Virus record (IMG/VR): IMGVR_UViG_3300027770_000032
Direction: 5' to 3' (one strand)
DNA: 64,000 bases
Source: a virus
Positions within the stretch are counted from its first letter, which is position 1. Every line of letters starts with the position of its first letter. The notes under the pieces were generated by a model, which saw nothing but the letters and a program-made list of their open reading frames with translations, was not told the DNA's origin and did no database searches. Positions 1-37,446 of the stretch are shown here, one piece after another. The position numbers and the translations under genes were made by a program.

Positions 1-915
1 AGTCAGTTGGATCGGACCACGACCTCTCCACTTATAACCATCTCCAGAGGCTTCTGAACCGTTCCCCATCCGATTAGCATACACTTTGTTTGCAATCTTT
101 TCTGGTTTACGAGCATAACCTGCAGTCGAAGCGATCGTAGGAAAATACTTCTTGAAAATTCCGTTGAGTCCCTTATCTGAGTAGTTGAGGTTCTCAGAGA
201 ACACCTTAAACCCACCTGACTCATGAGCACACTGACCGAAGAAGTGTGCCGCTTGATTGTTTGTCAGCTTGAAATAATCTCTTGCTGCCTTATATGTTCC
301 AGGTCCCCATTTACCGTCGGCAACAATGCCGCATTTCGTTTGGAGAGCAGCTAATGGACCAAGACCCGCAGCAATCGGAATTGCCTTTGAAGCAGGAACC
401 GGAGGAGTTGTCTGACGAAGAACTCCAGTGGCCTTCATTGTGGTGGGATCAAAATCCTGAACAGGCGTATATGTTGTGCCACCAGATTTTGACTTCGCAG
501 CAACTAGAAGTTGACGACGATTCCCACCAGCCTTCTTAATCGAAGCGTGAACCCATCCTGAATTCTTATCACCTTTTGTGTAGAACTCAAGAATCACTTG
601 GTCAAATTCAAGATTATCGCCGATCCAATCGGCAACAGTTTTGTTATCAACACCTTTTACTTCAAAGTCAATCGCCTGACCGTTGACATGTTGTGATGTC
701 TTTGAACCACCGACTGCCTTATTCACAAGCGGTGCACGATACGAAGAGTTGATCGTCACAGGACCAAACTTTGCACGAACTGGTTCAAGAATCTTTTCGC
801 AACAGTAACGCATATTCTCAATATGTTCTGGAGTTGGATTATTGCTAAGTCCAAGTTTTTTAGCCGTTGGAGAAACAGTCATTTCTTCTAGAGCAAAATG
901 TTCAGTTAGTTTCAT
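1..915 (-). CDS. Endolysin (3' end outside window): peptidase M15 + PG-binding motif + GH19 glycoside hydrolase
   Basis: Absent from the ORF track. Manually read stop-free frame from ATG at 915 to window start: MKLTEHFALEEM...SSYR...SQHVNGQAIDF...WVHAS (M15 Zn motifs), DGKWGPGT, FFGQCAHESGGF...YANRMGNG...WRGRGPIQLT (GH19). Confidence 0.9.
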   Translation of the reverse strand, partial: MKLTEHFALEEMTVSPTAKKLGLSNNPTPEHIENMRYCCEKILEPVRAKFGPVTINSSYRAPLVNKAVGGSKTSQHVNGQAIDFEVKGVDNKTVADWIGDNLEFDQVILEFYTKGDKNSGWVHASIKKAGGNRRQLLVAAKSKSGGTTYTPVQDFDPTTMKATGVLRQTTPPVPASKAIPIAAGLGPLAALQTKCGIVADGKWGPGTYKAARDYFKLTNNQAAHFFGQCAHESGGFKVFSENLNYSDKGLNGIFKKYFPTIASTAGYARKPEKIANKVYANRMGNGSEASGDGYKWRGRGPIQLT

Positions 916-3770: not shown

Positions 3771-3794
3771 GGGACAATCAGACAAGGAGAAGTT

Positions 3795-6694: not shown

Positions 6695-6699
6695 GATGT

Positions 6700-6809: not shown

Positions 6810-6810
6810 G

Positions 6811-6841
6811 ATGGGCGGCTTTCGGGTCGCCCATTTTTTTT
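6811..6841 (+). terminator. Rho-independent terminator
   Basis: ATGGGCGGCT-TTCG-GGTCGCCCAT followed by a T run. Confidence 0.9.
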
Positions 6842-6850
6842 GTCTTTTTT

Positions 6851-6915
6851 AAAAATAAACATGTACATTTTATCAAAACTTTGGTAGTATGAATAATAAG
6901 CTAAGGAGATTGTTA
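6851..6915 (+). repeat. Promoter+RBS cassette, copy 1
   Basis: 65 bp identical to 41417-41481: AAAAATAAACA-TGTACA-N17-TAGTAT...TAAGGAG. Confidence 0.9.
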
Positions 6916-11407: not shown

Positions 11408-12013
11408 ATGATAAAGAAACGTTTCAGAGAGTTTGTTGGTTCAGGTACGCTTACGATATTCGATATCGATGAGACGCTGTTCCATACATATGCAAAGGTT
11501 GCTGTTGTGAAAGATGGCAAGGTTGTTCGAATGCTCGACAACCAAGAGTTCAACACTTACAAACGTAAGAAGGGTGAAACCTACGACTTCGGAGAGTTTG
11601 CAAATGCTGAGGTGTTTCGCAAGTCATCTAAACCAATCACTCGAATGGTTGCCAAAACAAAAGCGATCTTTGCTAACTCAAAGAAGAATCCTCATAGTCG
11701 AGTGATTATCTGCACAGCACGAGCTGACTTCGATAATAAGGATATCTTCCTTCAGACGTTCAGAGATCATGGTCTACCTATCGATAATATCCATGTCGAA
11801 CGCGCTGGTAACCTGAAGATAGACTCTTCGGCAGAAGCCAAGAAGATCATTTTTCGGAAGTATATAAATACTAAGAACTACGTAAAGCTTCGGTTGTTTG
11901 ATGATGCTCCGAGCAATCTTCAAGCATTTCTTTCGTTAAAGAAAGAATTTCCTAACATTACGTTCGAAGCTTATTTTGTAAATCCTGATGGATCGGTAAA
12001 AACAGTACGATGA
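11408..12013 (+). CDS. HAD-superfamily phosphatase
   Basis: FDIDETL, CTAR, K, LFDD motifs I-IV. Confidence 0.85.
   Translation: MIKKRFREFVGSGTLTIFDIDETLFHTYAKVAVVKDGKVVRMLDNQEFNTYKRKKGETYDFGEFANAEVFRKSSKPITRMVAKTKAIFANSKKNPHSRVIICTARADFDNKDIFLQTFRDHGLPIDNIHVERAGNLKIDSSAEAKKIIFRKYINTKNYVKLRLFDDAPSNLQAFLSLKKEFPNITFEAYFVNPDGSVKTVR
11863..11870 (+). promoter_or_regulatory. T4 late promoter inside the HAD gene
   Basis: TATAAATA upstream of the 12010 ORF. Confidence 0.55.
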
Positions 12014-13179
12014 CAACCTTTAAAGATTTCCTTGCCGAAGAGCTCGACGAAAGTAAACTTACGCATCTTGAGCATGCTGAAGATCACGTGATTAATGCTG
12101 GTCATGAAGGCTTTTCTCATGCCTATCATAATCTGAAAGATGTGCATGATAAGTTGACTGGTAAGAAGAACGATACCAAAGTGACTATGAAGTATGATGG
12201 TTCTCCTTCTGTAGTATTTGGTCGTCATCCTCAAACCGGTCGATTCTTCGTGGCATCAAAGTCTGCCTTTAATAAGAATCCGAAGATTAACTACACCGAA
12301 GAAGATATTCAAAAGAATCACGGTCATGCTCCGGGTTTGGTAGAAAAACTCAAAGCAGCTTTACAACATCTTCCGAAAGTCACACCGAAGAAAGGTGTTT
12401 TCCAAGGTGATATTATGCATACGCCTAATGATGTGCATGAATCTGATGGTCGCGTGCACTTTACTCCAAATACGATTACGTATTCTGCTGCGAGAGCTTC
12501 AGCGCAAGGCCAAGCTGCTTTAAACGCAAAGATAGGCATTGCCGTTCATACGAAGTATAATGGTAATAATCTCGAAGATATGCAAGCCGAACACGGCGCT
12601 GATTTGAGCGAGTTTGGATTGCATAGAGATGTGCATTTGATTTCTACTGCTCATCGCCTTGATAATATTAAATATACTCCTCAGCAACGAGAAAGATTTG
12701 CAAGGGCGATGGCTGCTGCAGCAAAGGCGAATAAAAAAACAAAGCCTGAAACGTATGAAGCGATCAAAGGCCACGAGGTTCCACTCAAGACTTACATTAA
12801 TCATACTGTTCGTACCGGTACAAGACCGAATGTCGAAGGTTTTATGAATCACTACATCAAGTCGCAACAGAAAAGGGTTGATAGTGTAAAAACCGAAAAA
12901 GCAAAAGCAGCAAAAACTGCCGAGATGGAAACGGCAATTGGTCATGTTCAACGCAATCGTGCGCATTTTGAAAATGTATTAAATCAACATAAGGCGCTGC
13001 AGAAGGCCAAGAACATATTAACGAATACACTTTCAAGTAATTCAGAATTTGATCATAGTATTAATGGAAAGAAAGCAAAGCCTGAAGGCTTTGTGGTAGT
13101 CAGACATAATCGTCCTACTAAGTTTGTTGATCGCGCTGAGTTCTCGGCGGCCAATTTTAATAGAGGTAAACCAGCATGA
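12010..13179 (+). CDS. ATP-dependent RNA-ligase-like covalent nucleotidyltransferase (DUF6267-like)
   Basis: KYDGS (motif I), FFVASK, VFQGD (III), EGFVV (IV), TKFV (V); N-terminus MTTFKDFLAE. Confidence 0.65.
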   Translation: MTTFKDFLAEELDESKLTHLEHAEDHVINAGHEGFSHAYHNLKDVHDKLTGKKNDTKVTMKYDGSPSVVFGRHPQTGRFFVASKSAFNKNPKINYTEEDIQKNHGHAPGLVEKLKAALQHLPKVTPKKGVFQGDIMHTPNDVHESDGRVHFTPNTITYSAARASAQGQAALNAKIGIAVHTKYNGNNLEDMQAEHGADLSEFGLHRDVHLISTAHRLDNIKYTPQQRERFARAMAAAAKANKKTKPETYEAIKGHEVPLKTYINHTVRTGTRPNVEGFMNHYIKSQQKRVDSVKTEKAKAAKTAEMETAIGHVQRNRAHFENVLNQHKALQKAKNILTNTLSSNSEFDHSINGKKAKPEGFVVVRHNRPTKFVDRAEFSAANFNRGKPA

Positions 13180-13787
13180 AGTCAATTCATATTACACAAG
13201 GAAGATTTAATCCTGTTCATGCTGGACATGCGATGGTTGTACAGAATGTAATGAATGCCGCCAAAAAAGAAGGTGCAGATCATAAGATCTTAACGACTGG
13301 ATCTCATGATGCAAAGAAGAATCCTTTGACGCCAGAGCAAAAGGTAAAGCATCTTTCTCGCGCTGTCAAGGGTGCACACGTCGAAGCCATGACAAGAGAG
13401 CATCCTACGCTTCTTCATCAGATGTCAAAACTACACAAAGCTGGTTATACTCACGTTACCATGCATGTCGGATCAGATCGTGTTAAAGAATTTCACGCTC
13501 TGTTGCATAGATACAATGGTGCAGAAGGTAAACACGGTCACTATAACTTTAAAAGTATTAAAGTCAAGGCTGTAGGCGGTGAGCGTACGGAAGGCGGAAG
13601 TGGAATTGAATCTGCTTCTGGTACTACGATGCGTAAGCATGCTGCAGCTGGAGATAAGGAATCATTTCATAAGATGGCTCCATCGGGTATGAGTAAAGCA
13701 CATAAAGATGAATTGTATCATGATGTCCGCAAAGGTATGGGTGTCAACGAATCATTTATTATTCGATTTAAAAACTGGATTAGTTGA
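13176..13787 (+). CDS. HxGH (cytidylyltransferase-like) nucleotidyltransferase
   Basis: GRFNPVHAGH, VGSDR, SASGTTMRK. Confidence 0.85.
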   Translation: MKSIHITQGRFNPVHAGHAMVVQNVMNAAKKEGADHKILTTGSHDAKKNPLTPEQKVKHLSRAVKGAHVEAMTREHPTLLHQMSKLHKAGYTHVTMHVGSDRVKEFHALLHRYNGAEGKHGHYNFKSIKVKAVGGERTEGGSGIESASGTTMRKHAAAGDKESFHKMAPSGMSKAHKDELYHDVRKGMGVNESFIIRFKNWIS

Positions 13788-13806
13788 CTCGTTAAAGTTT
13801 CCTTGT

Positions 13807-13814
13807 TATAAATA
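13807..13814 (+). promoter_or_regulatory. T4 late promoter
   Basis: TATAAATA. Confidence 0.75.
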
Positions 13815-13875
13815 GGTTTGCGGTTAGGCTACGGCAATCCCGTTTGTGTAACAGATAAGCCCAAGGGAAACTCTG

Positions 13876-15918: not shown

Positions 15919-16208
15919 TCGGATTTAAAGAGTTCATCACTGAGCGTGGCGAAGACTCGAAAGGTCATTTCATTGCCACTGAAAAAGGTGCAGGAATGAC
16001 TGTGAAAGGTGTCAAAGCTTTTCGCGCAAAGAATCCTGGATCGAATCTACAAACTGCTGTCACAGGTAAAGTCAAACCCGGATCAAAAGATGCAGGAAGA
16101 CGCAAGTCATTCTGTGCTCGTATGAGTGGTAATAAAGGCCCAATGAAAGACGAGAAAGGCAGACCGACTCGTAAAGCAATGTCATTAAGAAGATGGAAGT
16201 GTAACTAA
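15915..16208 (+). CDS. Small basic protein, putative internal head protein
   Basis: N-terminus MIGFKEFITE; RRKSFCARM...LRRWKC. Confidence 0.7.
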   Translation: MIGFKEFITERGEDSKGHFIATEKGAGMTVKGVKAFRAKNPGSNLQTAVTGKVKPGSKDAGRRKSFCARMSGNKGPMKDEKGRPTRKAMSLRRWKCN

Positions 16209-16645
16209 TGGAAGAGATCACAAACCCTTTAAAGGTCGCGTTTGCAGACACCTATGCGCTTTACGTGAAGGCTCAAAACTATCATTGGAATGTCGAAGGA
16301 CCAATGTTCCCGATGTATCATGAATTCTTTGGTAACATCTACGAAGAAGTCGGCGGTGCCATTGATCCTTTCGCCGAAGAGATTCGAGCCCAAAAATCTT
16401 ATGCTCCAGCTTCGTTCGGAAGGTTCAATGAACTATCAACAATTGAAGATGAATCTCTTATTCAGTTGCTTCCTACAACCATGGTGACTAATCTTTTCGA
16501 AGATAATAATCGAGTTCTTGCTTCTCTTCAACTTGCAAGAGAAGCAGCAGACAAATACAATCAAAACGGTCTCGTTAACTTCCTTGAAGAAAGACTGGAT
16601 CAGCACAACAAACACGCATGGATGCTCCGCGCATCGATGAAATAA
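16208..16645 (+). CDS. dps: Dps/ferritin-like DNA protection protein
   Basis: HWNVEG, HEFFGNIYEE, D.FAEEIR, KHAWML. Confidence 0.9.
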   Translation: MEEITNPLKVAFADTYALYVKAQNYHWNVEGPMFPMYHEFFGNIYEEVGGAIDPFAEEIRAQKSYAPASFGRFNELSTIEDESLIQLLPTTMVTNLFEDNNRVLASLQLAREAADKYNQNGLVNFLEERLDQHNKHAWMLRASMK

Positions 16646-16679
16646 TTTCATAAATAGATTTAAATTTACGGAGCAAAAA

Positions 16680-18914: not shown

Positions 18915-18921
18915 GTGTAAT

Positions 18922-19137
18922 ATGGCAATTAATGTTGGAAATTTTGTAGTAAAAAATAAAACGGTTGAAACAGAAACTTTACCAGAAGTTGAAGTTGCTA
19001 TTGAAAATGAAGAAGTTGCGCCTTTACCCCAAGTTGTACAAATGGAAGAAGGCACTGTTATTCATAATGGTCAACCAAAAAAGTTTAATAAAAAAATGTC
19101 GGCATACATGATTGATATGCTTACATCCGAAGAATGA
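18922..19137 (+). CDS. Hypothetical protein
   Basis: ORF with AGGT RBS. Confidence 0.6.
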   Translation: MAINVGNFVVKNKTVETETLPEVEVAIENEEVAPLPQVVQMEEGTVIHNGQPKKFNKKMSAYMIDMLTSEE

Positions 19138-19171
19138 TAAATAAGACAAAGAATCTTTAGGAGAAACGAAG

Positions 19172-20032
19172 ATGGCTCAATGGGGCAATACAGACGATGC
19201 TGCAAACTCGGTCCTATGGGCCACAACTGCAGTGAACAAAACACCTAACACGGTAAACCAAACTGCACTGTTCGGTAACACCACTGTCGGCGCATTTACT
19301 GCTGGCGAAGCAGTCGGCCAATTTGGTCTTGATGTAAACGAAGTTTCACTTGCAGTTGCCAACGTGGCAGTCGCACAGTATGTGATTACAAGCGGAGGTT
19401 CAGGTTATGGAGCGAATGCTGCAGTCACTGTTGCTAACACAACAGGCGGAGCAAATACACTTGCTGCTAACTCGACACAGACACTCGGTCGTATTACGGC
19501 AGTGACTGCAAACGCGACAATTCGTGGATATACATCGCGTCCAGCGGTGACAATCGCGGCACCTGCTGCACTTAATATCGTATCGAATACTGCTGGTTTC
19601 AGTAATACAAATGATACATTTCTTGTTGCAACTGCCAACTCTAAGTTTGCTGTCGGAGACAGAATCTATTACTCAGTTCCTACTGCAAATACTCCAATCG
19701 CTCCTCTCTCAGGTAATACGTACTACTACATACAAGCGGCGAATACGACAACAATCAAACTCGCAACTGCTCCAAATGGCGATGCGATTGATCTGACTGA
19801 CACTCGTAACCTTGCATCGCCTGAAACACACACAGTACGAGGTGATACTGCAACGGCTGAAGCTGTTCTCACCGGTTTCGGTGCTATCGACGGCGCAGCA
19901 CACACCGGTTGGGTACTTCGCACAGTCGGAAGTGGCGGTCGTGCAGGCCGCGTTCAGTATGAAACACTCGTTGCAATGGGTGGAAACTTCTCGACTGACG
20001 CATCTGACGACGCAATCTTGCCAGACGCATAA
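19172..20032 (+). CDS. Virion structural protein (decoration/fibre-like)
   Basis: A/T/N/G-rich beta-type composition; MAQWG...ETLVAM; AGGAG RBS. Confidence 0.65.
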   Translation: MAQWGNTDDAANSVLWATTAVNKTPNTVNQTALFGNTTVGAFTAGEAVGQFGLDVNEVSLAVANVAVAQYVITSGGSGYGANAAVTVANTTGGANTLAANSTQTLGRITAVTANATIRGYTSRPAVTIAAPAALNIVSNTAGFSNTNDTFLVATANSKFAVGDRIYYSVPTANTPIAPLSGNTYYYIQAANTTTIKLATAPNGDAIDLTDTRNLASPETHTVRGDTATAEAVLTGFGAIDGAAHTGWVLRTVGSGGRAGRVQYETLVAMGGNFSTDASDDAILPDA

Positions 20033-25997: not shown

Positions 25998-28242
25998 TGG
26001 ATCAAAAGAAGCTTTAAATATTAATAAGTTCCATAAAGTAGCGCTGCATGCGTGTGAAGGTTTAAGCGGCGTTTCTGTTTCAGATCTTGAAATCAAAACT
26101 CATATTCAATTTTATGATAAGATTAAGTCTTCTGATATTCAAGAGACTCTGATCAAGGCAGCTGCTGAACTCATTACAGAAGACGAACCGAACTATCAGT
26201 ATGTTGCTGGTCGTCTGATCAACTATAATCTTCGTAAACAAGTATATGGGCAGTATGAGCCTATCTCTTTATGTCAACATTTTGCTAATGTAGTCGAAGA
26301 AGGCTATTATGATGAATCATTGGCTGATGTATATGACGATGCAGAGTGGTTTGAATTAGCAGAATACATCGACCACGACCGTGATAACCTGCTAACCTAT
26401 GCTGCCATGGAACAGTTCCGCGGTAAGTATCTGATCCGCAACCGTGTCACCAACAAATTCTACGAAACGCCTCAGATGGCATTCATGTTGATTGCCATGA
26501 CTCTCTTCCAAAATTACAAAACAGATCGAATGAAATGGGTAAAGGACCTTTATGATGCTATCAGTAAATTTGACATTAGTCTTCCTACTCCTATTATGGC
26601 AGGAGTGCGCTCACCTCAACATCAGTTTAGTTCGTGCGTACTTATCGAAACTGACGACTCACTGGATTCCATAAATGCAACAGCTTCTGCGATTGTTAAG
26701 TACGTTTCACAAAAGGCCGGAATTGGTATTGGCGGCGGTTCTATTAGGGCTATTGGATCTCCTATACGTAATGGTGATGCTTCTCACACTGGTGTTATTC
26801 CTTTTTATAAGCATTTCCAATCGGCTGTTAAATCTTGTAGCCAAGGTGGTGTCCGCGGTGGAGCAGCGACTCTCTATTACCCCCTTTGGCATTACGAAGT
26901 TGAAGATATTCTTGTCCTAAAGAATAACAAGGGCACAGAAGACAATCGAATTCGTCATCTTGATTATGGCGTACAATTTAACAAGGTAATGTATGAAAGA
27001 CTTTTATCTGGAGGTAATATCACCCTCTTCTCGCCTAGTGATGTCCCGGACCTCTATGAAGCCTTTTATAAAAGCACTGAAGACTTTAAAGAACTCTATG
27101 AAAAGTACGAACGTAGTAAGGTTAGAAAGAAAACCATCTCTGCGATTGATCTCTTCTCAACCTTCGTTACCGAGCGAAAAGATACCGGACGAATCTATCT
27201 GATGAACGTCGACCATTGCAATGAGCATGGTTCGTTTACTCAAGCAGCACCAATTAAGATGAGCAATCTTTGTTGTGAGATTACATTACCAACTACACCA
27301 TTAAAGGATATTCACGATGAGTCAGGCGAAATCAGCCTTTGCACGCTTGCAGCAATCAATTGGGGAAAGATTAAGAAACCAGCAGATTTCGAAAAGCCAT
27401 GCACCCTTGCAGTACGCGCTTTGGATGCCTTACTGGATTATCAGGACTATCCTGTTCGAGCCGCTGCTATTGGTACTCGGAATCGCCGGCCTTTGGGTAT
27501 TGGCATCATTAATTTTGCTTATTGGTTGGCTCGCAACGACACTAATTATTCTCATCCAAACCTTGATCTGGTCCATGAGTATGCTGAAGCATGGAGTTAC
27601 TATCTTATTAAAGCCTCTGTCGATCTTGCTGAAGAAGTAGGTTCTTGCCCTCTTGATCATCAAACAAAGTATGCGTATGGTACTATGCCAATCGATACAT
27701 ATAAGAAAGAAGTTGATGAACTTGTAGAGCCAAACTATAAGATGCCATGGAGTATACTTGCAAGTCGAGCATTATCATCTGGTATTCGTAACTCGACTCT
27801 GATGGCTCTCATGCCAGCCGAGACTTCTGCTCAGATCAGTAACTCAACCAACGGTATTGAACCACCACGTGCACTCATCTCGATCAAGCAATCAAAAGAT
27901 GGTGTACTCAAGCAAGTTGTTCCTGAGTTAAAAAGATTAAAGAATAAATATGAGTTACTATGGGATCAAAAGTCTCCAGAAGGTTATCTGAAGATTATGG
28001 CAGTCCTACAGAAATTTATCGATCAAGCAATCTCAGTCAATACTTCTTATAATCCTCGTCATTACGAAGATGAAAAGATTCCAATGTCTGAGATGATCAA
28101 ACATATTCTGATGCACTACAAGTATGGCGGTAAGACACTCTACTACTTCAACACCTTTGACGGAGCTGGTGAGATGGAAGAACTTAAACCACTCGCACAA
28201 GGTCAACTCGAAGACGAGGATTGTGATTCTTGTAAAATATGA
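25972..28242 (+). CDS. nrdA: Class Ia ribonucleotide reductase alpha subunit
   Basis: ATP cone VTKRDG, SSCVL, SNLCCEI, TLYY, C-terminal CDSCKI. Confidence 0.97.
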   Translation: MMILVTKRDGSKEALNINKFHKVALHACEGLSGVSVSDLEIKTHIQFYDKIKSSDIQETLIKAAAELITEDEPNYQYVAGRLINYNLRKQVYGQYEPISLCQHFANVVEEGYYDESLADVYDDAEWFELAEYIDHDRDNLLTYAAMEQFRGKYLIRNRVTNKFYETPQMAFMLIAMTLFQNYKTDRMKWVKDLYDAISKFDISLPTPIMAGVRSPQHQFSSCVLIETDDSLDSINATASAIVKYVSQKAGIGIGGGSIRAIGSPIRNGDASHTGVIPFYKHFQSAVKSCSQGGVRGGAATLYYPLWHYEVEDILVLKNNKGTEDNRIRHLDYGVQFNKVMYERLLSGGNITLFSPSDVPDLYEAFYKSTEDFKELYEKYERSKVRKKTISAIDLFSTFVTERKDTGRIYLMNVDHCNEHGSFTQAAPIKMSNLCCEITLPTTPLKDIHDESGEISLCTLAAINWGKIKKPADFEKPCTLAVRALDALLDYQDYPVRAAAIGTRNRRPLGIGIINFAYWLARNDTNYSHPNLDLVHEYAEAWSYYLIKASVDLAEEVGSCPLDHQTKYAYGTMPIDTYKKEVDELVEPNYKMPWSILASRALSSGIRNSTLMALMPAETSAQISNSTNGIEPPRALISIKQSKDGVLKQVVPELKRLKNKYELLWDQKSPEGYLKIMAVLQKFIDQAISVNTSYNPRHYEDEKIPMSEMIKHILMHYKYGGKTLYYFNTFDGAGEMEELKPLAQGQLEDEDCDSCKI

Positions 28243-29015
28243 AATATAAAACTATCTTCATTAGTGATGTTCACTTAGGAACAAAAGATTGCAAAGCCGA
28301 TCTTTTGAATAACTTTCTTAAGCACAACACGTGTGATACTTTATATTTGGTTGGTGATATCATTGATGCATGGAAAATACAACAAAATCGTTTAAAATGG
28401 AAACAGTCACATACCAATGTAGTCAGAAGAATTTTAGGATTTGCTAAACACGGTACTCGTGTAGTCTATGTTGCCGGCAATCACGATGAATTTCTTCGCC
28501 CGATGATTCCGTATGGTGTAAGTTTTGGTAAGATTGAAATATGTAATCAGATATGCCATGAAGGTGTTGATGGTAAAAAATACATGGTTGTTCATGGTGA
28601 TCTTTTTGATGGCATTACTCGTCTTGCACCTTGGTTAAGTTTTCTTGGCGACAGAGCATATGATTTTGTACTTAATTTAAATAGTCGGTTTAATTGGATT
28701 CGCCATAGACTTGGATTTGGCTATTGGTCTCTAAGTAAGTGGTTAAAGTATAAAGTCAAGAGAGCCATCGACTTTATGTTTCAGTTTGAAAAAAATGTTA
28801 CTGCATATGCTAAAAGAAAAGGATATGATGGAGTAATTTGCGGTCATATACACAATGCAGAAATCAAAGATATCGATGGCAGCATGTATATGAACGATGG
28901 CGATTGGGTAGAATCATGTACTGCACTTGTCGAACATCGAGATGGCAGGTGGGAAATCGTAACATGGCAGGAAATTAAAAATGAAAATAAAAAAATTAAT
29001 TTTAAAAATGTATGA
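28239..29015 (+). CDS. Metallophosphoesterase (LpxH-like)
   Basis: SDVHLG, GDIID, GNHD, HGD, GHIH, NDGDW. Confidence 0.85.
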   Translation: MKYKTIFISDVHLGTKDCKADLLNNFLKHNTCDTLYLVGDIIDAWKIQQNRLKWKQSHTNVVRRILGFAKHGTRVVYVAGNHDEFLRPMIPYGVSFGKIEICNQICHEGVDGKKYMVVHGDLFDGITRLAPWLSFLGDRAYDFVLNLNSRFNWIRHRLGFGYWSLSKWLKYKVKRAIDFMFQFEKNVTAYAKRKGYDGVICGHIHNAEIKDIDGSMYMNDGDWVESCTALVEHRDGRWEIVTWQEIKNENKKINFKNV

Positions 29016-31105: not shown

Positions 31106-31525
31106 ATGTGGTTATACGAAGACAAAGAATTTATTGATGTCGAAGATTATTATGGTTTCATATATGTTATTGAAAACTTAATCAACGGCCGAAAATATAT
31201 TGGTCGCAAGTATCTGACTAAGGCCGGATACAAAACTGTCAAAGGCAAACGAAAGAAGCTCCGCGTAGAGTCCGATTGGCGAGACTACTACGGATCTTCG
31301 ACTTCCCTCAAAGAAGATATTGATCTCTACGGAAAAGATAACTTTCGTAGAACGATCTTAAGACTCTGTAAGGGTCGCGGAGAATGTAATTACTTTGAAA
31401 CGAAATATATATTTGATAACGATGCCATTTTAGATCCTCAGTATTATAATACTTGGGTGTCTTGTAAAATTCAAGCAAGCCACGTAAAGGCTTTACTTTT
31501 CAACCCTGAACAGGAGAATTTATGA
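31106..31525 (+). CDS. GIY-YIG family endonuclease
   Basis: GFIY...YIGRK...WRDYYGSS. Confidence 0.8.
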   Translation: MWLYEDKEFIDVEDYYGFIYVIENLINGRKYIGRKYLTKAGYKTVKGKRKKLRVESDWRDYYGSSTSLKEDIDLYGKDNFRRTILRLCKGRGECNYFETKYIFDNDAILDPQYYNTWVSCKIQASHVKALLFNPEQENL

Positions 31526-31526
31526 G

Positions 31527-31916
31527 GTGGGTAAGGTACTCGAACATAAGCATTTGATTGTAAGAGCAGAGCTCAAGAATCCTCCACAATGCACAGAAGC
31601 CATTGAAACGTGGATGAAAAAGCTCGTCAATCAAATTGATATGAAAATTTTAATGGGACCATATGCGGTGTATTCTGATATGGTTGGTAACCGTGGTTTG
31701 ACTGCCGTGACTATTATTGAGACGAGTCATATCGCTCTACATGTTTGGGATGAGTGTGAACCTGCGCTTGCTCAACTCGATGTATACACGTGCAGCGCTT
31801 TGAATACTAATGATGTCTTCGAAGCCATGAAAGAATGGGATCCTACTCAAGTCGAATATAAGTATATCGACAGAGAACATGAACTGTGTACATTAATTGA
31901 GAAACGTGTTATATAA
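31527..31916 (+). CDS. speD: S-adenosylmethionine decarboxylase
   Basis: HKHLIV, IETSHIALHVW (self-cleavage serine), LDVYTC. Confidence 0.8.
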   Translation: MGKVLEHKHLIVRAELKNPPQCTEAIETWMKKLVNQIDMKILMGPYAVYSDMVGNRGLTAVTIIETSHIALHVWDECEPALAQLDVYTCSALNTNDVFEAMKEWDPTQVEYKYIDREHELCTLIEKRVI

Positions 31917-31948: not shown

Positions 31949-32218
31949 ATGGGTAAAAAGAGAACACGTAAGACAGTTACTTCGAAAGGACAGCGTCGTA
32001 ATATCGTCGCCGGCGTAAAAGAAGTTCGTCAAGCGCGAAGTGAAGGAGAAGTTGCTTATAATAAACTCGAAGCGTGGCGCAAAGGACAGAATCCATGGAT
32101 TACTGTTCCTGGTCCAAGCACAAAGTGTCGCTTGATGAAAGTCAAAGCAAATGCCGTTTGGGGCAATCCAAAAAATCGTTCAACCGGTATTTACAGCAAA
32201 GTAACAAACGATGGTTAA
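31949..32218 (+). CDS. Basic hypothetical protein
   Basis: GAGG RBS; AWRKGQNPWIT. Confidence 0.7.
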   Translation: MGKKRTRKTVTSKGQRRNIVAGVKEVRQARSEGEVAYNKLEAWRKGQNPWITVPGPSTKCRLMKVKANAVWGNPKNRSTGIYSKVTNDG

Positions 32219-32465
32219 GAATGTATTGATCTATACGAAAGAAAATTGCCCTTATTGTACACAAGCAAAAAACTTGTTTACAAATAAAGGACAACAGTAT
32301 ATAGAGAAGAAGATAGGAAAAGATCTTACACGCGAAGAGTTTATGGAAAACTTTCCAGATGTAAGAACAGTTCCTTTTATTATTATTGACACAGAAAAGG
32401 TAGGTGGTTATGACAAACTCATTGAATGGTACGACAGACCAGAACGAAGCTTCTTGGCGGAATGA
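32211..32465 (+). CDS. nrdC: Glutaredoxin
   Basis: CPYC, TVP, GGY. Confidence 0.9.
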   Translation: MVKNVLIYTKENCPYCTQAKNLFTNKGQQYIEKKIGKDLTREEFMENFPDVRTVPFIIIDTEKVGGYDKLIEWYDRPERSFLAE

Positions 32466-32715
32466 ATACCTCAAAGGTATTCTTCAAACTGGAATCGCAA
32501 ATGTTACCTTCGTAAAGAAGGATGGCACAGAACGAGTTCTTCGTTGCACTCTGTCTCCGACACAACTTCCGGAACAGACTGATCTTGAAAAAGCTTTTAA
32601 ACAACAAAAGACTCCAAATCCAGATGTACTCGCTGTATGGGATCTCGAAAATAAGGGATGGCGTTCATTCCGTTACGACTCGATTCTCGGCTTTAGTATA
32701 GTACACGTCGAGTGA
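32410..32715 (+). CDS. SH3-like/WYL-related conserved T4-like protein
   Basis: FVKKDGTERVLRCTL...WDLENKGWRSFR. Confidence 0.7.
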   Translation: MTNSLNGTTDQNEASWRNEYLKGILQTGIANVTFVKKDGTERVLRCTLSPTQLPEQTDLEKAFKQQKTPNPDVLAVWDLENKGWRSFRYDSILGFSIVHVE

Positions 32716-33056
32716 TCTACATGGTCGATATTGATCAGACTATCTGTCTGACTCCTTTTATGGATGGAAAGCATCGATATGAACTTTCCATCCCATTTAG
32801 GCAGCGTATTGAAGAGATAAATAAACTATACGATCAAGGCCACACTATTAAGTATTGGACTGCTCGTGGTTCAGGATCGGGCATCGACTGGACTGAACTC
32901 ACTACACAACAACTAAATGATTGGGACTGCAAGTTTCACGAAGTTCGAGTCGGAAAACCGTCATACGATATATGGATCGATGACAAGGCTATCAGTGATA
33001 AGGATTTCTTTGCAATTGCAGACCGATCGATCTTTCCAGGATTTGAAGATGAATAA
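32712..33056 (+). CDS. Small HAD phosphatase (capsule-biosynthesis type)
   Basis: VDIDQT, WTARG, GKP, IDDKA. Confidence 0.8.
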   Translation: MIYMVDIDQTICLTPFMDGKHRYELSIPFRQRIEEINKLYDQGHTIKYWTARGSGSGIDWTELTTQQLNDWDCKFHEVRVGKPSYDIWIDDKAISDKDFFAIADRSIFPGFEDE

Positions 33057-34038
33057 TCAAGAACGAATTGAATTGAATGAACTGAATAAGGAATCGAATG
33101 GCGGAACAGAACTTACCACTCGAAATCTCTTCCATCGACTATCAAGTGATGAACTCGATGGTGTCCAAATTATCACTGCTCGCGTCCGCGACCTCGATCC
33201 TGACCGAATTAAGATCTATCATTTACATGATCTCGCCGGTGATCCGGAAGCTGCACATCTTCAAGATCCGACTTCTCGAGCTCGCTTTCAAAAGTTGGTC
33301 TTCAGCTCGAACTGGCAGTATCAACAGTATCGTGACTATCTTGGAATTCCATATAGCAATCATTCAACAGTTATCGAAACAGGCATCGAGCCTATTCCAC
33401 TCGTTGACAAACCAAAGGACAAGATACGCCTCATTTATACATCCACACCTCATCGTGGATTGGAGATTTTGGTTCCTGTCTTTTGTGCTCTTGCCGAAAA
33501 ATACCCCAATATTGAACTAGACGTGTTTTCTTCGTTCGGTATCTATGGTCCTGGATGGCAGGGACGCGACGAAGCGTACAAGCCTATCTTCGATCGGATG
33601 AAGGAGCACCCACAGATCAACTACCATGGATGGGCAGATCAAGAGACTGTTCGAGCTGCATATCAACGCGCACACATCTTTGCATATCCTTGTATCTGGC
33701 CTGAAACTTCTTGTCGTTCTTTGATTGAAGCGATGTCAGCTGGTTGTCTTGCGGTACATCCTAACTTCTCGGCACTGGCTGACACGTCGGGTGGGTTGAC
33801 TGTCCAGTATGATGGAGATCATGAGGATCAAAATCTCCATGCTAATATCTTTGCACATACTCTCATGTATGCCATCGAAAATGTTCAGAACAACGACATT
33901 ACTAATATGATGTCATTCGTCAAAGCATACGCAGACACTCGCTTCGGTTGGGATTCTGTCATTCCCAAGTGGAAGGGACTCATCGCTTCGTTAAAGGAAC
34001 AACACCGTGATATTGGCCAAGGCACCACTCAGAGTTAG
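33049..34038 (+). CDS. GT-B glycosyltransferase (GT4-like)
   Basis: GGTE, YTSTPHRGL, ETSCRSLIEAMSAG. Confidence 0.85.
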   Translation: MNNQERIELNELNKESNGGTELTTRNLFHRLSSDELDGVQIITARVRDLDPDRIKIYHLHDLAGDPEAAHLQDPTSRARFQKLVFSSNWQYQQYRDYLGIPYSNHSTVIETGIEPIPLVDKPKDKIRLIYTSTPHRGLEILVPVFCALAEKYPNIELDVFSSFGIYGPGWQGRDEAYKPIFDRMKEHPQINYHGWADQETVRAAYQRAHIFAYPCIWPETSCRSLIEAMSAGCLAVHPNFSALADTSGGLTVQYDGDHEDQNLHANIFAHTLMYAIENVQNNDITNMMSFVKAYADTRFGWDSVIPKWKGLIASLKEQHRDIGQGTTQS

Positions 34039-34957
34039 TTTTTTCGGTGGGGGTAGCGATATCCCCACGCACTTTGCAACATGGGGTGGAGCAACCATCT
34101 CAACGGCTATCGACAATTATGTCTATGTAGCAGTTATGCATACACCACACGACCACATTAAAGTGTCTTACTCAAAGCTTGAGTGCGTCACAGACGTCGA
34201 AGATATTCAGAACGAAATCGTTCGTAACGCGCTCAAGTTCTTCGGTATCAAATCCAACATCGAAATCACATCATTCGCAGACATTCCCACGATCGGTAAC
34301 GGTCTTGGTGGATCGTCTGCCTTTACTTGTGCCTTGATCAAGGCTTTGTCTGCCTATCTTGGTTATGAATACGTCAATCCATATGGCCTTGCGAAAACTG
34401 CTTGTCATATCGAGATTGACTTATGTGGTTGGAAGATCGGTATGCAAGATCAGTTTGCATCTGCATTTGGTGGTATGAATTACATTGAGTATGCTAATGA
34501 ACTTGGTAATGGTCGTGTAGATGTCAAGCGGCTTGATTCGAATAGTATCGAAAACTATATGATTTTGATTCCAACTAATATCGAACATCATGCAGCAAAG
34601 ATTCTTGATAAGATCAACTTTGAAGCCAAGACATTCGTTATTCGCCAACTCGCAGATATGGCAAAGATGCAGAGTACACAACGCGTGAATATCAACGAAT
34701 ATGGTGGATTATTAAACTCTGCGTGGATGTTAAAGAAACAGATGACTGAAGGCATCTCTTCAGAAGAGATAGATAGTATGTATGATCGATGCCAATCTGC
34801 AGGAGCACTCGGATCTAAACTGCTTGGTGCAGGAGGAGGCGGATACATGTTAGCACTCACAGATTCAAAGAGCGCAATTCGCCAAGAATTCTCAGATAGA
34901 ATATGCCTAGATGTAGGCATCTCACATGAAGGAGCAAAAGTTGTTTATAGAGACTGA
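34007..34957 (+). CDS. GHMP sugar kinase (HddA heptose-7-P kinase-like)
   Basis: APLRVSFFGGGSD, GLGGSS, GMQDQ, KLLGAGGGG. Confidence 0.85.
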   Translation: MILAKAPLRVSFFGGGSDIPTHFATWGGATISTAIDNYVYVAVMHTPHDHIKVSYSKLECVTDVEDIQNEIVRNALKFFGIKSNIEITSFADIPTIGNGLGGSSAFTCALIKALSAYLGYEYVNPYGLAKTACHIEIDLCGWKIGMQDQFASAFGGMNYIEYANELGNGRVDVKRLDSNSIENYMILIPTNIEHHAAKILDKINFEAKTFVIRQLADMAKMQSTQRVNINEYGGLLNSAWMLKKQMTEGISSEEIDSMYDRCQSAGALGSKLLGAGGGGYMLALTDSKSAIRQEFSDRICLDVGISHEGAKVVYRD

Positions 34958-35525
34958 TATCATACTTGATCACCTCGGCCTGATTAATATCGGCTTTGCT
35001 AGCATTGATCAAGAAGAATTTAAGAAAGCCGCCGAACTTATTTGGATGACCAGCATTTCCAATAATCGAAATAACATCTATACGATTGGTAATGGTGCTT
35101 CTGCTTCGATCGCTCAACATTGGGCATGTGACTATACCAAAGGTTGCAAGCAAGGTGGATTACGACCACGGGTCATCTCGCTAGCAGCAAATATTCCACT
35201 CATGACTGCCATCTCCAATGATATCAGCTATGACGATGTCTATTCGTTTCAACTCGAAGCGCTTGGTCAAGAAGACGATGTACTCGTAGCCATCTCTTCG
35301 AGTGGCAATTCTCCAAATGTTGTGAAGGCAATTGAGACTGCTAAGTCTTTGAATATGAAGACTATTGCATTGTCAGGATTTAAATCAGATAATAAATGTA
35401 CTCAACTTGCAGATATTTCTTTGCACGTTGACATTCAAGAATACGAAGCAGCAGAAGACGTCCATCAAGCCATTATGCATATGATTGCTAAATATATTCG
35501 AAACAGAAATAAGGTAACTATATAA
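34926..35525 (+). CDS. gmhA: Phosphoheptose isomerase (SIS domain)
   Basis: GNGASA, TAISND, ISSSGNSPNV, EDVH. Confidence 0.85.
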   Translation: MKEQKLFIETDIILDHLGLINIGFASIDQEEFKKAAELIWMTSISNNRNNIYTIGNGASASIAQHWACDYTKGCKQGGLRPRVISLAANIPLMTAISNDISYDDVYSFQLEALGQEDDVLVAISSSGNSPNVVKAIETAKSLNMKTIALSGFKSDNKCTQLADISLHVDIQEYEAAEDVHQAIMHMIAKYIRNRNKVTI

Positions 35526-36280
35526 TGTCAGAGCAACCAGTATCAATTCATCAAATTCAGGCTCAATTCGGCACAGACAGTGCAAACTACGAAGTACTCA
35601 CCGATGCAGCTATTCGATCAAAAGGAGTAGAAGGCGCAGCGGTTGAAGTTGGTGTTCGCCTCGGCGGAGGTTTAAAGTTTATCATCGACGGTCTTGTTGA
35701 GAGTGATCAAACTCCTGCAAAACCGGTCTTTGGTATCGATCCGTACGGTAACATCGAATACTATCGCGATGAGATCTTTAAGGAAGGGCGTTGCGACTAT
35801 AACAATGAAATGCGCGACATCTGCATGATCAATATGTATCTGTATTGTCGTCAGAAGAATGTGAATTTCTACATGTTCAATCTTGAAGATACAGAGTTCT
35901 TTAATCGCTATGCAGACGGTGTTCCTATCTATGCAGAGAATAAGAGTATTCTCAATAAATACAGCGTAGTTCACTTCGATGGTCCTCATACGCTCGAAGC
36001 GCTTGATACCGAGATTGCGTTTTTCCTTGAACGATCAGATCCTGGAGCTGTCTTCGTCTTTGATGACGTAGAGATGTACGAACATGATGCGATCCACGAT
36101 CAGTTGCTCGAGTATGGTATGGAAACGGCAATGGAAACTCCTCGTAAGTGGTCTTATGTGAAGAAGGAACATGTCGATAAAAAGTGGACACCGGTCGTTG
36201 GAACTCCTGGATGGGAACCAGATGCAACACAATATACTCCTAAAGCTGGGCCAATTTTTAATTATAAAATCGACCTATGA
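35525..36280 (+). CDS. Class I SAM methyltransferase (TylF/Methyltransf_24-like)
   Basis: EVGVRLGG, GIDPY, VHFDGPH, VFDD. Confidence 0.75.
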   Translation: MSEQPVSIHQIQAQFGTDSANYEVLTDAAIRSKGVEGAAVEVGVRLGGGLKFIIDGLVESDQTPAKPVFGIDPYGNIEYYRDEIFKEGRCDYNNEMRDICMINMYLYCRQKNVNFYMFNLEDTEFFNRYADGVPIYAENKSILNKYSVVHFDGPHTLEALDTEIAFFLERSDPGAVFVFDDVEMYEHDAIHDQLLEYGMETAMETPRKWSYVKKEHVDKKWTPVVGTPGWEPDATQYTPKAGPIFNYKIDL

Positions 36281-36351: not shown

Positions 36352-37446
36352 GTGGTCATTAAGGTGAAAGCGAAACCAAAACAGATCTCTCGGTCGGCGA
36401 TCAAGTCGATCGATGACAAAGCCTATGGATCCGAGCCTGTAGTAATCTCAGGATTTTCTAATGCCTTGAATTGGTATAATTACATGGCATCTGATGATCA
36501 GTCACGCGACTGGTTCTTCACTTATGCCAAGCGTAGCTATACAAAGAATGAGCTTGCTCTCTTGCGCAAGTTACCAAAGTGGAGGATTTCGAAAACTCTT
36601 GGCAATATCGCTCGTATTCTCTTGAATGGTAATGAACTTCCAAAAGAGAATATGGACTACTTCGATAATGGTGTAAAAGATTTGCTAAAGCTTGCAAGTC
36701 AGATTGTCGAAGAAGACGAAGAAGCTGTCGCTGTCAAGGCTGTCGTTGATATTCAAGCCCGCGTTCGCGATAAGGCGCAGATGATCATTACCAATATCGA
36801 AGAAGAACTCGACCTTGTGATGGAAGGCAAGGCATTCTCGATGTACACCTTTTGTCAAGCGAACGAACTGAATGCTCAGATCTTAAACATCATATCAGAC
36901 TATTATCGTCCTCAGTATACTGAGATCATGTCGAATGACGAGCAAGTTCAAGAAGCATTTGGTAAACGTCTGAAGTTTTGGATTAACTTTTGGCAGAGTT
37001 TCTTCTCTGACATCGAACGTTATGTCAATAACAAGAAAGTGACAAAAGTTCGTAAGCCCCGTGAGAAGAAGGCGAAGTCTGCAGTTGATCTGGTCAAGAA
37101 CCTTAAATACCAGAAGGAAGAGCCTTCACTCAAGATTGTCTCTGTTCATCCAACAGAGTTAGTAGGATGTACGCAGCTATGGACTTACAATACCAAGTAT
37201 AAGAAACTCAGTCGCTATGACTCAGTTGGTCCAGCTGGAATCCAAGTAAAAGGCACTACGCTGATTGGATATGATGTTGAAACCTCTATGAGTAAAGGCT
37301 TACGCAAACCAGAAGCTTCGATACAAGCATTGCTTGGTGCTGGTAAAGTCAGCCTACGTAAGCTGATGGACGAGATCAAGACCGTGGAATCAAAGCCAAA
37401 TGGCAGAATCAATCAAGACACTATTCTACTAAGGGTGATTAAATGA
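36352..37446 (+). CDS. Conserved T4-like hypothetical protein
   Basis: GTG start with AGGAG; ALNWYNY, YNTKYKKL, NGRIN. Confidence 0.75.
   Translation: MVIKVKAKPKQISRSAIKSIDDKAYGSEPVVISGFSNALNWYNYMASDDQSRDWFFTYAKRSYTKNELALLRKLPKWRISKTLGNIARILLNGNELPKENMDYFDNGVKDLLKLASQIVEEDEEAVAVKAVVDIQARVRDKAQMIITNIEEELDLVMEGKAFSMYTFCQANELNAQILNIISDYYRPQYTEIMSNDEQVQEAFGKRLKFWINFWQSFFSDIERYVNNKKVTKVRKPREKKAKSAVDLVKNLKYQKEEPSLKIVSVHPTELVGCTQLWTYNTKYKKLSRYDSVGPAGIQVKGTTLIGYDVETSMSKGLRKPEASIQALLGAGKVSLRKLMDEIKTVESKPNGRINQDTILLRVIK

Follow-up and report, generated by a model that had tools for sequence, protein, structure and literature searches.

What does a T4-like phage do with five overlapping sugar genes in the middle of its nucleotide-metabolism genes, and to which acceptor does the sugar go? 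The window, that is, the whole stretch of 64,000 nucleotides analysed here (IMG/VR record IMGVR_UViG_3300027770_000032), comes from an uncultured T4-like phage. A sequence-only reading had described at 32712..36280 a heptose operon whose product is transferred onto phage DNA, virion proteins or a host receptor. The five overlapping open reading frames, for a HAD phosphatase, a glycosyltransferase (GT), a kinase, a SIS isomerase and a methyltransferase, are indeed present, all on the plus strand. Their setting is also as described, with genes for nucleotide metabolism and replication (ThyX, NrdA, NrdB, glutaredoxin, RNase H, PhoH) around the cassette. We find that these genes most likely supply a lineage-conserved GT with an activated seven-carbon sugar, which is methylated in some cases. 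With a probability of about 0.55 we regard the cassette as the phage's supply line for a nucleotide-activated heptose, arranged around a GT of the lineage core and serving an acceptor which is more probably not DNA. The relevant features of the window are:

1..915, minus strand: M15/GH19 lysin, N-terminal part; synteny anchor for an off-window 137-aa nucleotidyltransferase
13176..13787, plus strand: CTP_transf_like (HxGH) protein (PF01467, 3e-6)
32211..32465, plus strand: glutaredoxin (nrdC-like), upstream anchor of the slot; CPYC motif, slot annotated glutaredoxin in phiM12 and Cr30
32404..32715, plus strand: WYL_2 (DUF2693) small protein preceding the GT (PF10902, 3.6e-14); a DUF2693 gene also precedes the phiM12 GT
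32712..33056, plus strand: predicted minimal HAD sugar-phosphate phosphatase, 114 aa (phrog_1238, TIGR01689, PDB 9iqw)
33049..34038, plus strand: GT4-type (retaining) GT-B glycosyltransferase, 329 aa from the ATG (PF00534/PF13692, AlphaFold model)
34007..34957, plus strand: HddA-like GHMP sugar kinase, 316 aa (PF00288 and PF08544, NF049969, PDB 3k85/4usk/4n3o)
34926..35525, plus strand: GmhA-like SIS isomerase, 199 aa (TIGR00441, PDB GmhA chains)
35525..36280, plus strand: accessory class-I SAM sugar-O-methyltransferase-like enzyme, 251 aa (PF13578, Foldseek)
36352..37446, plus strand: conserved 364-aa protein encoded after the GT or the cassette in every lineage (phrog_11903, 2e-79; synteny)

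Gene integrity, selection and synteny can be observed directly. All five cassette genes are intact and under purifying selection (dN/dS 0.03-0.25) of a strength that matches NrdB and RNase H, and the catalytic and binding motifs of the enzymes are all invariant across 68-78 orthologues. The same gene order is found on 80 IMG/VR loci with kinase identities of 82-100%, and on these loci HAD, GT, kinase and SIS stand together in order wherever the contig covers them. Given this shared order and the low dN/dS values, the arrangement of the cassette is not due to chance. The methyltransferase is missing from 27 of the 59 related loci on contigs which span the slot from the SIS gene to the 364-aa gene. 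The cassette genes are located in the early/middle replication region; the late-promoter motif TATAAATA occurs nine times in the window (three expected) and is absent from 13807 to 43060 in the window motif scan.

The GT sits in a conserved slot composed of glutaredoxin, WYL_2, GT, 364-aa protein and RNase H, and it holds this slot in the cultured phages Cr30 and phiM12 as well. In phiM12 glutaredoxin is followed by DUF2693, the GT, genes for a 388-aa and a 120-aa protein, and rnh, with no sugar genes among them. DLP6 likewise has the GT without phage sugar genes. In Cr30 the glutaredoxin gene is followed by genes for an epimerase, the GT, the kinase, the isomerase and a 365-aa protein. The 364-aa protein, for which an Atlas search gave no usable match, has syntenic counterparts of 365-388 aa in Cr30 and phiM12. 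Orthologues of the GT with 38-47% identity are encoded by DLP6, Cr30, phiM12/M7/M19/N3 and RHph_I1_18. The GT is thus a core gene of the phage lineage and the sugar-making genes are add-ons. The annotated heptose genes of the cultured Caulobacter phage Cr30, the Synechococcus phage SynMITS9220M01 and the P-SSM2 sugar cluster are comparable: their GT, kinase and isomerase are orthologues arranged in the same way, and the HAD family is shared. The window lineage, however, has in addition a HAD that stands alone and, in some members, the O-methyltransferase, whereas Cr30 has an SDR epimerase instead and in the cyanophage the HAD is fused to a nucleotidyltransferase.

Families and folds were assigned directly by profile and structure comparison. 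The GT reading frame spans 32917-34038; its true start is likely the ATG at 33049, which overlaps the HAD stop. It matches PF00534/PF13692 (about 3e-7), and its AlphaFold model (pLDDT 91.9; VIA) reaches Z 25-27 to the GT4 GT-B enzymes HepE, SPS, SenB, MshA, PimA and BshA. Across 36 sequences, E219-x7-E227 does not vary. The GT retains the Arg/Gly and EX7E features that are conserved in GT4 enzymes, which we take to mark the use of an NDP-sugar.

The kinase has both GHMP domains (PF00288, PF08544) with motifs invariant in 76-78 of 78 orthologues. Among NCBIfam models HddA fits it best (NF049969, 1.8e-33), although the score of 116 bits falls short of the cut-off of 600, and its best PDB chains are of the HddA/WcbL type (3k85, 4usk, 4n3o; about 1e-28). 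The SIS protein matches gmhA TIGR00441 (4e-34; 118 bits, cut-off 209), and its best 15 PDB chains are all GmhA or DiaA. H65, D69, E177, H185, SSSGxS and ND are invariant in 74/74 orthologues; Asp and Glu replace the Glu65 and Gln172 of E. coli-type GmhA, positions which presumably serve metal binding and catalysis. Since the curated NCBIfam matches (gmhA, HddA, rfaE_dom_II) are all under their cut-offs, we infer the substrates from the nearest families.

The GTG start of the HAD gene overlaps the WYL_2 stop. The protein has no match in a Pfam search and is related to phrog_1238 (7e-26) and PDB 9iqw (5e-11); its nearest curated family is the capsule biosynthesis phosphatase TIGR01689, a weak match (0.0008). 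Of 69 orthologues, 68-69 retain DxDxT, T50, K82 and DD90-91. The sequence-only reading had assigned a GmhB-type HAD next to GmhA and HddA on the way to heptose-1-P. The GmhA-like, HddA-like and HAD steps are supported, but the GmhB identity is wrong, as this is a 114-aa minimal family similar to TIGR01689/9iqw. For the methyltransferase, said to be TylF-like, the fold agrees and the TylF Pfam model does not. The protein scores 26.0 bits against PF13578 (cut-off 26.3), and the best Foldseek matches of its model (pLDDT 89.9) are the sugar O-methyltransferases MeT1, SpnH, MycF, NovP and CalS11.

We suggest that the pathway could proceed in the following steps. Sedoheptulose-7-P would be converted to D-glycero-D-manno-heptose-7-P by the GmhA-like isomerase. 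Then the HddA-like kinase, proposed to be the anomeric kinase of the heptose phosphate, and the minimal HAD, predicted to take the 7-phosphate off the heptose intermediate, would yield heptose-1-P, in either order. A small RfaE-domain-II/TagD-like nucleotidyltransferase encoded outside the window could form an NDP-heptose, whose nucleotide is left general here, and the retaining GT4 enzyme would transfer the sugar to a putative acceptor. Finally, in about half of the slot-spanning related contigs, this window included, the O-methyltransferase-like enzyme might methylate the sugar. The GDP-D-glycero-alpha-D-manno-heptose pathway of capsules and S-layer glycans (GmhA, HddA/WcbL, GmhB, HddC) shares the GmhA-like isomerase, the HddA-like kinase and a HAD phosphatase. 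It differs in that the cassette HAD is minimal (114 aa) and not GmhB, no HddC-type NTP_transferase is present, the likely partner has a cytidylyltransferase fold, and the scores are below the equivalog cut-offs. With the ADP-heptose pathway (HldE, GmhB, HldD) the cassette has in common that the candidate nucleotidyltransferase best matches HldE domain II. Domain I of HldE is of the PfkB type, whereas the cassette kinase is of the GHMP type, and the nucleotidyltransferase is off-window.

The nucleotidyl-transfer step deserves a closer look. That the operon has no HddC-type transferase was rightly noted, and a PF00483 gene is absent from five related contigs and the complete Cr30 genome as well. 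The suggestion that this step may be encoded elsewhere in the genome is borne out to the extent that close relatives carry a 137-aa candidate upstream of the region corresponding to the window. Positions 2-6909 are about 90% identical to contigs whose nucleotidyltransferase gene stops 1.3-1.5 kb upstream of window base 1, in the order nucleotidyltransferase (CT), dCMP deaminase, Hsp20, lysin, gp43. In the relative G002 the protein stands alone, matches rfaE_dom_II (3.8e-18, below cut-off and nearly tied with TagD) and shares 45% identity with the fused domain described next and 50% with a Cr30 gene. Fusions provide a link to the cassette enzymes: in SynMITS9220M01 the gene after GmhA is a HAD, 46% identical to the window HAD, fused to CTP_transf_like (rfaE_dom_II 3.9e-16), and PF01467 is joined to the HAD family in 13 of the 16 longer HAD homologues. 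In the megaphage LR756511 a RfaE-domain-II/TagD-like nucleotidyltransferase follows the kinase within 200 bases. The link is not exclusive. The nucleotidyltransferase family occurs in 129 phage records as compared to 12 with the kinase, and G016, a relative with a 100%-complete genome, carries it at 68% identity although kinase, GT and HAD are all missing; it may thus serve another pathway. The HxGH gene at 13176, which had been offered for this step, is not supported. It shows only weak NMN-adenylyltransferase-like NCBIfam matches and none to rfaE_dom_II, shares 22% identity (E = 0.006) with the cytidylyltransferase domain linked to the cassette, and lies behind late-promoter motifs in a module of its own together with DUF6267 and DUF5824 genes. 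The 13176 gene therefore probably does not supply the missing activation, and the 137-aa protein is the better candidate.

It is possible, though in our view unlikely, that the cassette does not yield a heptose bound to a polymer and that the GT makes a small-molecule glycoside, or that the enzymes process another ketose phosphate, in an auxiliary metabolic role. Several of the GT4 enzymes closest in structure use small acceptors (sucrose-phosphate synthase, MshA, BshA, SenB, GlgM), and the GT of phiM12 and DLP6 would have to function without phage sugar genes. The sub-threshold curated scores and the altered SIS positions, conserved in 74/74 orthologues and in Cr30, point the same way. However, heptose enzymes outscore other GHMP and SIS families by 10-18 orders of magnitude for kinase and isomerase, and the cyanophage version adds an SDR annotated as heptose 6-epimerase, for which Pfam supports the generic epimerase family only.

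Somewhat less likely still is DNA hypermodification, in which the GT would add the (methyl-)heptose to a pyrimidine hydroxylated by an off-window enzyme, for example a TET/JBP-type dioxygenase. Glucosyl-hmC in T4, arabosyl-5hoC in RB69 and base J are the models for such a reaction. Cr30 and DLP6, both with the orthologous GT, encode Tet_JBP proteins (77 and 70 bits, cut-off 34.9), and the cassette lies amid early nucleotide-metabolism genes. The 89%-complete relative G007, however, has Tet_JBP without GT and kinase, so the two are not coupled. The window has ThyX as its thymidylate gene, and among the ORFs tested with Pfam neither a ThyA homologue nor Tet_JBP nor a C5-methylase was found. A base hydroxylase or hydroxymethylase, for which the sequence-only reading had looked to the rest of the genome, was found neither in the window nor in G002: 150 ORFs of this 75%-complete relative (about 25% unseen) gave no ThyA homologue, DNA methylase (Pfam) or Tet_JBP, and the other related contigs tested gave no ThyA homologue, Tet_JBP or C5 methylase. 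The complete phage phiM12 has the GT and neither Tet_JBP nor a C5 methylase; its ThyA, like that of Cr30, has PCH and P(F/Y)NIA motifs, which we read as canonical. The GT gave no sequence match to the T-even DNA glycosyltransferases at E = 1e-3, and none of these is among the 20 records matched. As judged from its title, the Cr30 paper describes a transducing phage.

The toolkit logic is nevertheless shared: according to PMC13326640, arabinosyl-5hoC of RB69/DLP3 involves the same succession of isomerase, HAD, anomeric kinase, nucleotidyltransferase and GT-B, and the DNA-arabinosylation cluster of phage HY126 carries a homologue of the window HAD. Hep- and di-Hep-5hmC are reported in a 2023 preprint for a metagenomic cluster of HAD-APH, cytidylyltransferase and GT-B (bioRxiv 10.1101/2023.12.21.572611). 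The kinase of the window is GHMP and not APH-type. Since heptosyl-5hmC DNA is already on record, and given the gene searches above, the earlier proposal of a new DNA hypermodification is weakened, and DNA appears a less likely acceptor than a non-DNA glycoconjugate (a glycan of the host envelope or a protein of the phage).

Some phosphatases of the capsule-biosynthesis family act after sugar transfer, and a retaining phosphorylase belongs to CAZy GT4. Least credible is nonetheless that the phage dispenses with its own nucleotidyl transfer, either by borrowing a promiscuous host sugar-1-P nucleotidyltransferase or by a phosphorylase-like GT-B acting on heptose-1-P or heptose-1,7-bisphosphate with the HAD trimming the 7-phosphate after transfer: the lack of PF00483 in the genomes named above, the capsule-type nearest family of the HAD and a cytidylyltransferase-like gene that is far from the cassette and also present in a complete phage without it are consistent with this, but the HAD-cytidylyltransferase fusions, the adjoining genes of LR756511, the nucleotidyltransferases of Cr30 and G002 and the GT4 features retained by the GT argue for a phage-encoded activation.

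The window carries genes typical of T4-like myoviruses (gp43 polymerase, UvsX, gp41, gp61, gp59, gp32 and baseplate genes). Its polymerase is about 50% identical to cyanomyovirus polymerases, and no named phage gave a near-identical DNA match to the window. Our reading of the open reading frames confirms the run of overlapping genes which the sequence-only reading had described as an operon for heptose biosynthesis and transfer. The five reading frames lie on the same strand at 32712-36280, in this order:

HAD protein, 114 aa
Glycosyltransferase, 329 aa, likely start at the ATG at 33049
GHMP kinase, 316 aa
SIS protein, 199 aa
Methyltransferase-like protein, 251 aa

Upstream of this cassette are found ThyX, NrdA, an LpxH-like metallophosphoesterase, NrdB, a SegE-like homing endonuclease, an AdoMet-decarboxylase-like gene, glutaredoxin and a WYL_2 protein. 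Downstream follow a conserved 364-aa protein, for which the Atlas search gave no usable match, RNase H and PhoH. Three of the upstream genes deserve a remark. The SegE-type GIY-YIG homing endonuclease (PF19835, 9e-35) at 31106-31525 is inserted between nrdB and the S-adenosylmethionine-decarboxylase-like gene. The latter, at 31527-31916, matches PF02675 with 2.6e-14 and TIGR03330 below the cut-off; it lies between the homing endonuclease and glutaredoxin and is kept in relatives. The metallophosphoesterase at 28239-29015, between NrdA and NrdB, has as its top NCBIfam model LpxH (UDP-2,3-diacylglucosamine diphosphatase), with 3.6e-13 and below the cut-off. Its role may be that of a pyrophosphatase acting on nucleotides or nucleotide sugars.

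The cassette is well conserved. The kinase was found at 82-100% identity on 80 IMG/VR loci, and on these loci HAD, glycosyltransferase, kinase and SIS genes keep the same order wherever the contig reaches. Compared with nine relatives, the cassette genes have dN/dS values of 0.03-0.25, which is the same range as for NrdB and RNase H. The four genes and their accessory methyltransferase (see below) are thus best regarded, as far as sequence comparison can tell, as a functional and conserved unit. The motif TATAAATA occurs nine times in the window versus three times expected, with several instances directly upstream of tail or baseplate genes. Since the motif is absent between 13807 and 43060, the stretch which contains the cassette, an early or middle expression of the cassette is suggested. 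Such a timing would fit a role in DNA modification and a role at the host envelope alike.

PDB sequence searches with the glycosyltransferase and the methyltransferase returned nothing significant, and we therefore turned to fold searches. The model of the glycosyltransferase (pLDDT 91.9) is that of a GT-B enzyme, with two Rossmann domains predicted close to GT4 structures: HepE, SPS, SenB, MshA, PimA and BshA align with Z scores of 25-27 over 280-293 residues. An EX7E motif in the C-terminal domain defines the retaining GT-B glycosyltransferases of the GT4 type; in our protein the two glutamates are E219 and E227, and neither varies across the 36 members of the family that were aligned. The fold matches are generic GT4 entries, and a study on arabinosylated phage DNA gives the same PDB entries for the arabinosyltransferases of RB69 and DLP3 (PMC13326640). 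The alpha- and beta-glucosyltransferases of T4 were absent from the best 50 VIA-align matches and from the Foldseek matches listed, which leaves room for a relation.

The glycosyltransferase family is large: at E = 0.001 it counts 2,389 members, and among the matches listed the contigs measure up to about 204 kb. Full-length orthologues (93-96% coverage, 38-47% identity) are present in Stenotrophomonas phage DLP6, Caulobacter phage Cr30, the Sinorhizobium phages phiM12, M7, M19 and N3 and Rhizobium phage RHph_I1_18; a shorter match is found in Ochrobactrum phage vB_OspM_OC (74% coverage, 43% identity). The search at E = 1e-3 matched 20 phage records, none of them from a T-even phage. In phiM12 the gene order is glutaredoxin, DUF2693 (WYL_2), glycosyltransferase, a 388-aa gene, a 120-aa gene and rnh, that is, the frame of the window without any sugar-making gene. 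Cr30 has glutaredoxin, an SDR epimerase, glycosyltransferase, kinase, isomerase and then a 365-aa gene. From these two gene orders we infer that the glycosyltransferase is the ancient part and that in some lineages the sugar genes were added around it.

The assignment of the sugar genes to heptose biosynthesis holds at the level of the nearest family, namely a GmhA-like isomerase, an HddA-like kinase and a HAD protein; the HAD is not of the GmhB type, and no HddC-type gene was found among the scanned reading frames. The top curated model of the kinase is HddA (NF049969, 1.8e-33), with 116 bits versus an equivalog cut-off of 600. In the PDB sequence search its closest chains are 3k85, 4usk/4usm and 4n3o, heptose kinases of the HddA/WcbL type, with about 1e-28; fucokinase follows as the next GHMP family with 4.5e-10. 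For the SIS protein the top model is gmhA (TIGR00441, 4e-34; 118 bits versus a cut-off of 209). GmhA chains in the PDB match with 1e-18 to 3e-24, and the strong matches are all GmhA or its paralogue DiaA. At the four positions which we take to make up the metal-binding and catalytic residues in E. coli GmhA, both histidines are retained, and Glu is replaced by Asp and Gln by Glu. This pattern is invariant in all 74 orthologues and is common to Cr30.

The HAD protein had been taken for a GmhB-type phosphatase, an assignment we do not uphold. With only 114 aa it has no Pfam match and no match to a GmhB model in NCBIfam at E = 0.01; instead it is assigned to phrog_1238, weakly to TIGR01689 and to PDB entry 9iqw ("capsule biosynthesis protein", 5e-11), for which no citing papers were found. 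Its motif set DxDxT/T/K/DD is intact. In phage annotation the phrog_1238 family is often labelled "phosphoheptose isomerase", for example P-SSM2 PSSM2_311 (L250:4989-5333). This label looks like a propagated error because the family has HAD motifs and no SIS domain.

The last gene had been called a TylF-like methyltransferase. This description agrees with the predicted fold, but not with the TylF Pfam model PF05711, which gave no match and is carried by only two of the 120 listed homologues. The model (pLDDT 89.9) is a class-I SAM fold closest to sugar O-methyltransferases, as the best Foldseek matches are MeT1 (7.6e-9), SpnH, MycF, NovP and CalS11, which all belong to this group. The family alignment displays an ExGxRxGG motif and invariant Asp residues. 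The sole Pfam match, PF13578, scores 26.0 bits versus a cut-off of 26.3 and is thus 0.3 bits short. Of 59 loci spanning from the SIS gene to the 364-aa gene, 32 contain the methyltransferase and 27 lack it; it is an accessory gene of the cassette.

How the sugar would be activated is less obvious. An HddC-type NTP_transferase (PF00483) was found neither in the scanned open reading frames of the window nor in five related contigs, the longest of which measures 128.8 kb and is 75% complete, nor in the complete Cr30 genome. The HxGH gene at 13176, put forward earlier as a possible source of this step, has only weak NMNAT-like matches, is 22% identical to the cassette-linked domain and belongs to a separate module; we reject it as the activating enzyme. 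This DUF6267/DUF5824 module lies behind late-promoter motifs. It extends over 12010-18914 and comprises a DUF6267 protein (389 aa), a CTP_transf_like protein (203 aa) and two DUF5824 proteins (680 and 744 aa), with TATAAATA motifs nearby at 10403, 11863 and 13807. The PHROGs families phrog_455 and phrog_3041 are fused forms of domains from this module.

A better candidate comes from related phages. In cyanophage SynMITS9220M01 the gene after GmhA encodes a HAD domain (46% identical to ours, E = 1e-24) fused to a cytidylyltransferase-fold domain with rfaE_dom_II and TagD as best models. Such fusions make up 13 of the 16 longer homologues of the window HAD. The related 128.8-kb contig G002 (75% complete) encodes a stand-alone protein of 137 aa with similarity to TIGR02199 (rfaE_dom_II; 3.8e-18, 65.7 bits versus a cut-off of 181.5) and TagD (9e-16). 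This protein shares 45% identity with the fused domain and 50% with a Cr30 gene that carries the annotation TagD. In the megaphage LR756511 a nucleotidyltransferase of this type follows the kinase within 200 bases. The window itself does not encode the 137-aa protein. Contigs that align to window 2-6909 with about 90% identity place the end of its gene 1.3-1.5 kb ahead of window base 1, in the order nucleotidyltransferase, dCMP deaminase, Hsp20, lysin and gp43. The family occurs in 129 phage records versus 12 for the kinase, and the complete 171.6-kb contig G016 has the nucleotidyltransferase without kinase, glycosyltransferase or HAD, so that an exclusive pairing with the cassette is rejected. 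We give about even odds that the 137-aa protein is the activating enzyme of the pathway.

Compared with the pathway to GDP-D-glycero-alpha-D-manno-heptose, the window has a minimal HAD in place of GmhB and no HddC-type gene among its scanned reading frames. The cassette pathway is read here as a variant of the known heptose routes. It pairs a GHMP kinase with a minimal HAD and, probably, an enzyme of the cytidylyltransferase fold, in place of GmhB and HddC, and this pairing is unlike either textbook heptose pathway. Cassettes of this kind already carry annotations in Cr30 and in cyanophages; a paper characterising them was not found in the Creative-Commons part of PubMed Central or in bioRxiv, and the phiM9 paper does not mention glycosylation or DNA modification.

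Which molecule receives the sugar? Glycosylation of virion proteins is plausible in this lineage because G002 encodes two prolyl-hydroxylase-type 2OG oxygenases and a PF11397 glycosyltransferase near its collagen-repeat fibres. The sequence-only reading had put forward a new hypermodification of DNA or of the virion as a candidate; our data neither support nor exclude a modification of phage DNA by the cassette, and heptosyl-DNA as such already has a precedent. According to a 2023 preprint, a HAD-APH enzyme, a cytidylyltransferase and a GT-B enzyme from a metagenomic phage cluster attach either a single heptose or two heptoses to 5hmC in E. coli (bioRxiv 10.1101/2023.12.21.572611). Also in favour of DNA, our HAD is homologous to the HAD which E. 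coli phage HY126 encodes in its arabinose-5-P isomerase cluster; PMC13326640 counts this phage among those with arabinosylated 5-hydroxycytosine. Further, Cr30 and DLP6 encode Tet_JBP proteins which are annotated as "SNF2 DNA repair":

Cr30, KF301602 59353-60681 (L198:4354-5682), Tet_JBP (PF12851), 77 bits versus a cut-off of 34.9
DLP6, KU682439 27179-28525 (L199:4180-5526), Tet_JBP (PF12851), 70 bits versus a cut-off of 34.9

Both proteins have the HxD and distal His motifs, and relatives are present in another 41 viral contigs; their identities range from 33 to 46%, or from 39 to 46% among the 40 longer matches. A consistent co-occurrence of Tet_JBP and glycosyltransferase is rejected, as phiM12 has only the glycosyltransferase and the contig G007 (89% complete) only Tet_JBP.

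Against DNA stands that no enzyme which would provide a hydroxylated base was found in the scanned reading frames of the window or in G002. The window encodes ThyX, and its scanned open reading frames include neither a ThyA homologue nor a methylase with TET/JBP for making a hydroxylated pyrimidine. A Pfam scan of 150 open reading frames of the 75% complete G002 found ThyX, dCMP deaminase and NrdAB, and no ThyA homologue or DNA methylase; family searches of this contig for Tet_JBP and C5 methylase were negative as well. The ThyA proteins of Cr30 and phiM12 carry the PCH and P(F/Y)NIA motifs, which we take to mark true thymidylate synthases and not hydroxymethylases. The complete phiM12 genome, with its orthologous and syntenic glycosyltransferase, has neither Tet_JBP nor C5 methylase.

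It is nevertheless conceivable that phage DNA is the substrate of the core GT4 enzyme, which would attach the sugar to a base hydroxylated without a ThyA homologue, for example by a base-J-like TET/JBP dioxygenase as in Cr30 and DLP6. The sugar would then be heptose in the cassette-bearing lineages, O-methylated where the methyltransferase is present. We consider this unlikely, with a chance of roughly one in ten; if true, this would be the first case of a methyl-heptosyl base in the DNA of a natural T4-like phage. Whatever the acceptor, T4-like phages that infect Caulobacter, Sinorhizobium, Rhizobium and Stenotrophomonas have the same glycosyltransferase at a constant position, and it is found in more than 2,000 metagenomic proteins, and in the version of the window the phage would supply its own heptose and, optionally, a methyltransferase. 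If the target is DNA, this would be a new natural hypermodification; if the sugar goes to the virion or the host envelope instead, phages and hosts in lakes would share a widespread layer of surface biology that has gone unstudied. With Cr30 and its host Caulobacter crescentus, a tractable laboratory system exists in which the target could be tested directly.

Some further observations concern G002. Between its collagen-repeat tail-fibre genes and the neck genes, at about 106.3-113.8 kb (L188:6354-13756), lies a gene cluster. It encodes two 2OG-FeII_Oxy_3 (prolyl-hydroxylase-type) proteins, DUF6065, a PF11397 GlcNAc glycosyltransferase, a fatty-acid desaturase and DUF6445, and may be a system which hydroxylates and glycosylates virion proteins. 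A few kb upstream of the polymerase, at 1353-3416 (L183), the contig encodes a 687-aa protein with a CHASE2 sensor and adenylate/guanylate cyclase domains, and a beta-ketoacyl synthase gene is found at 18656-19765.
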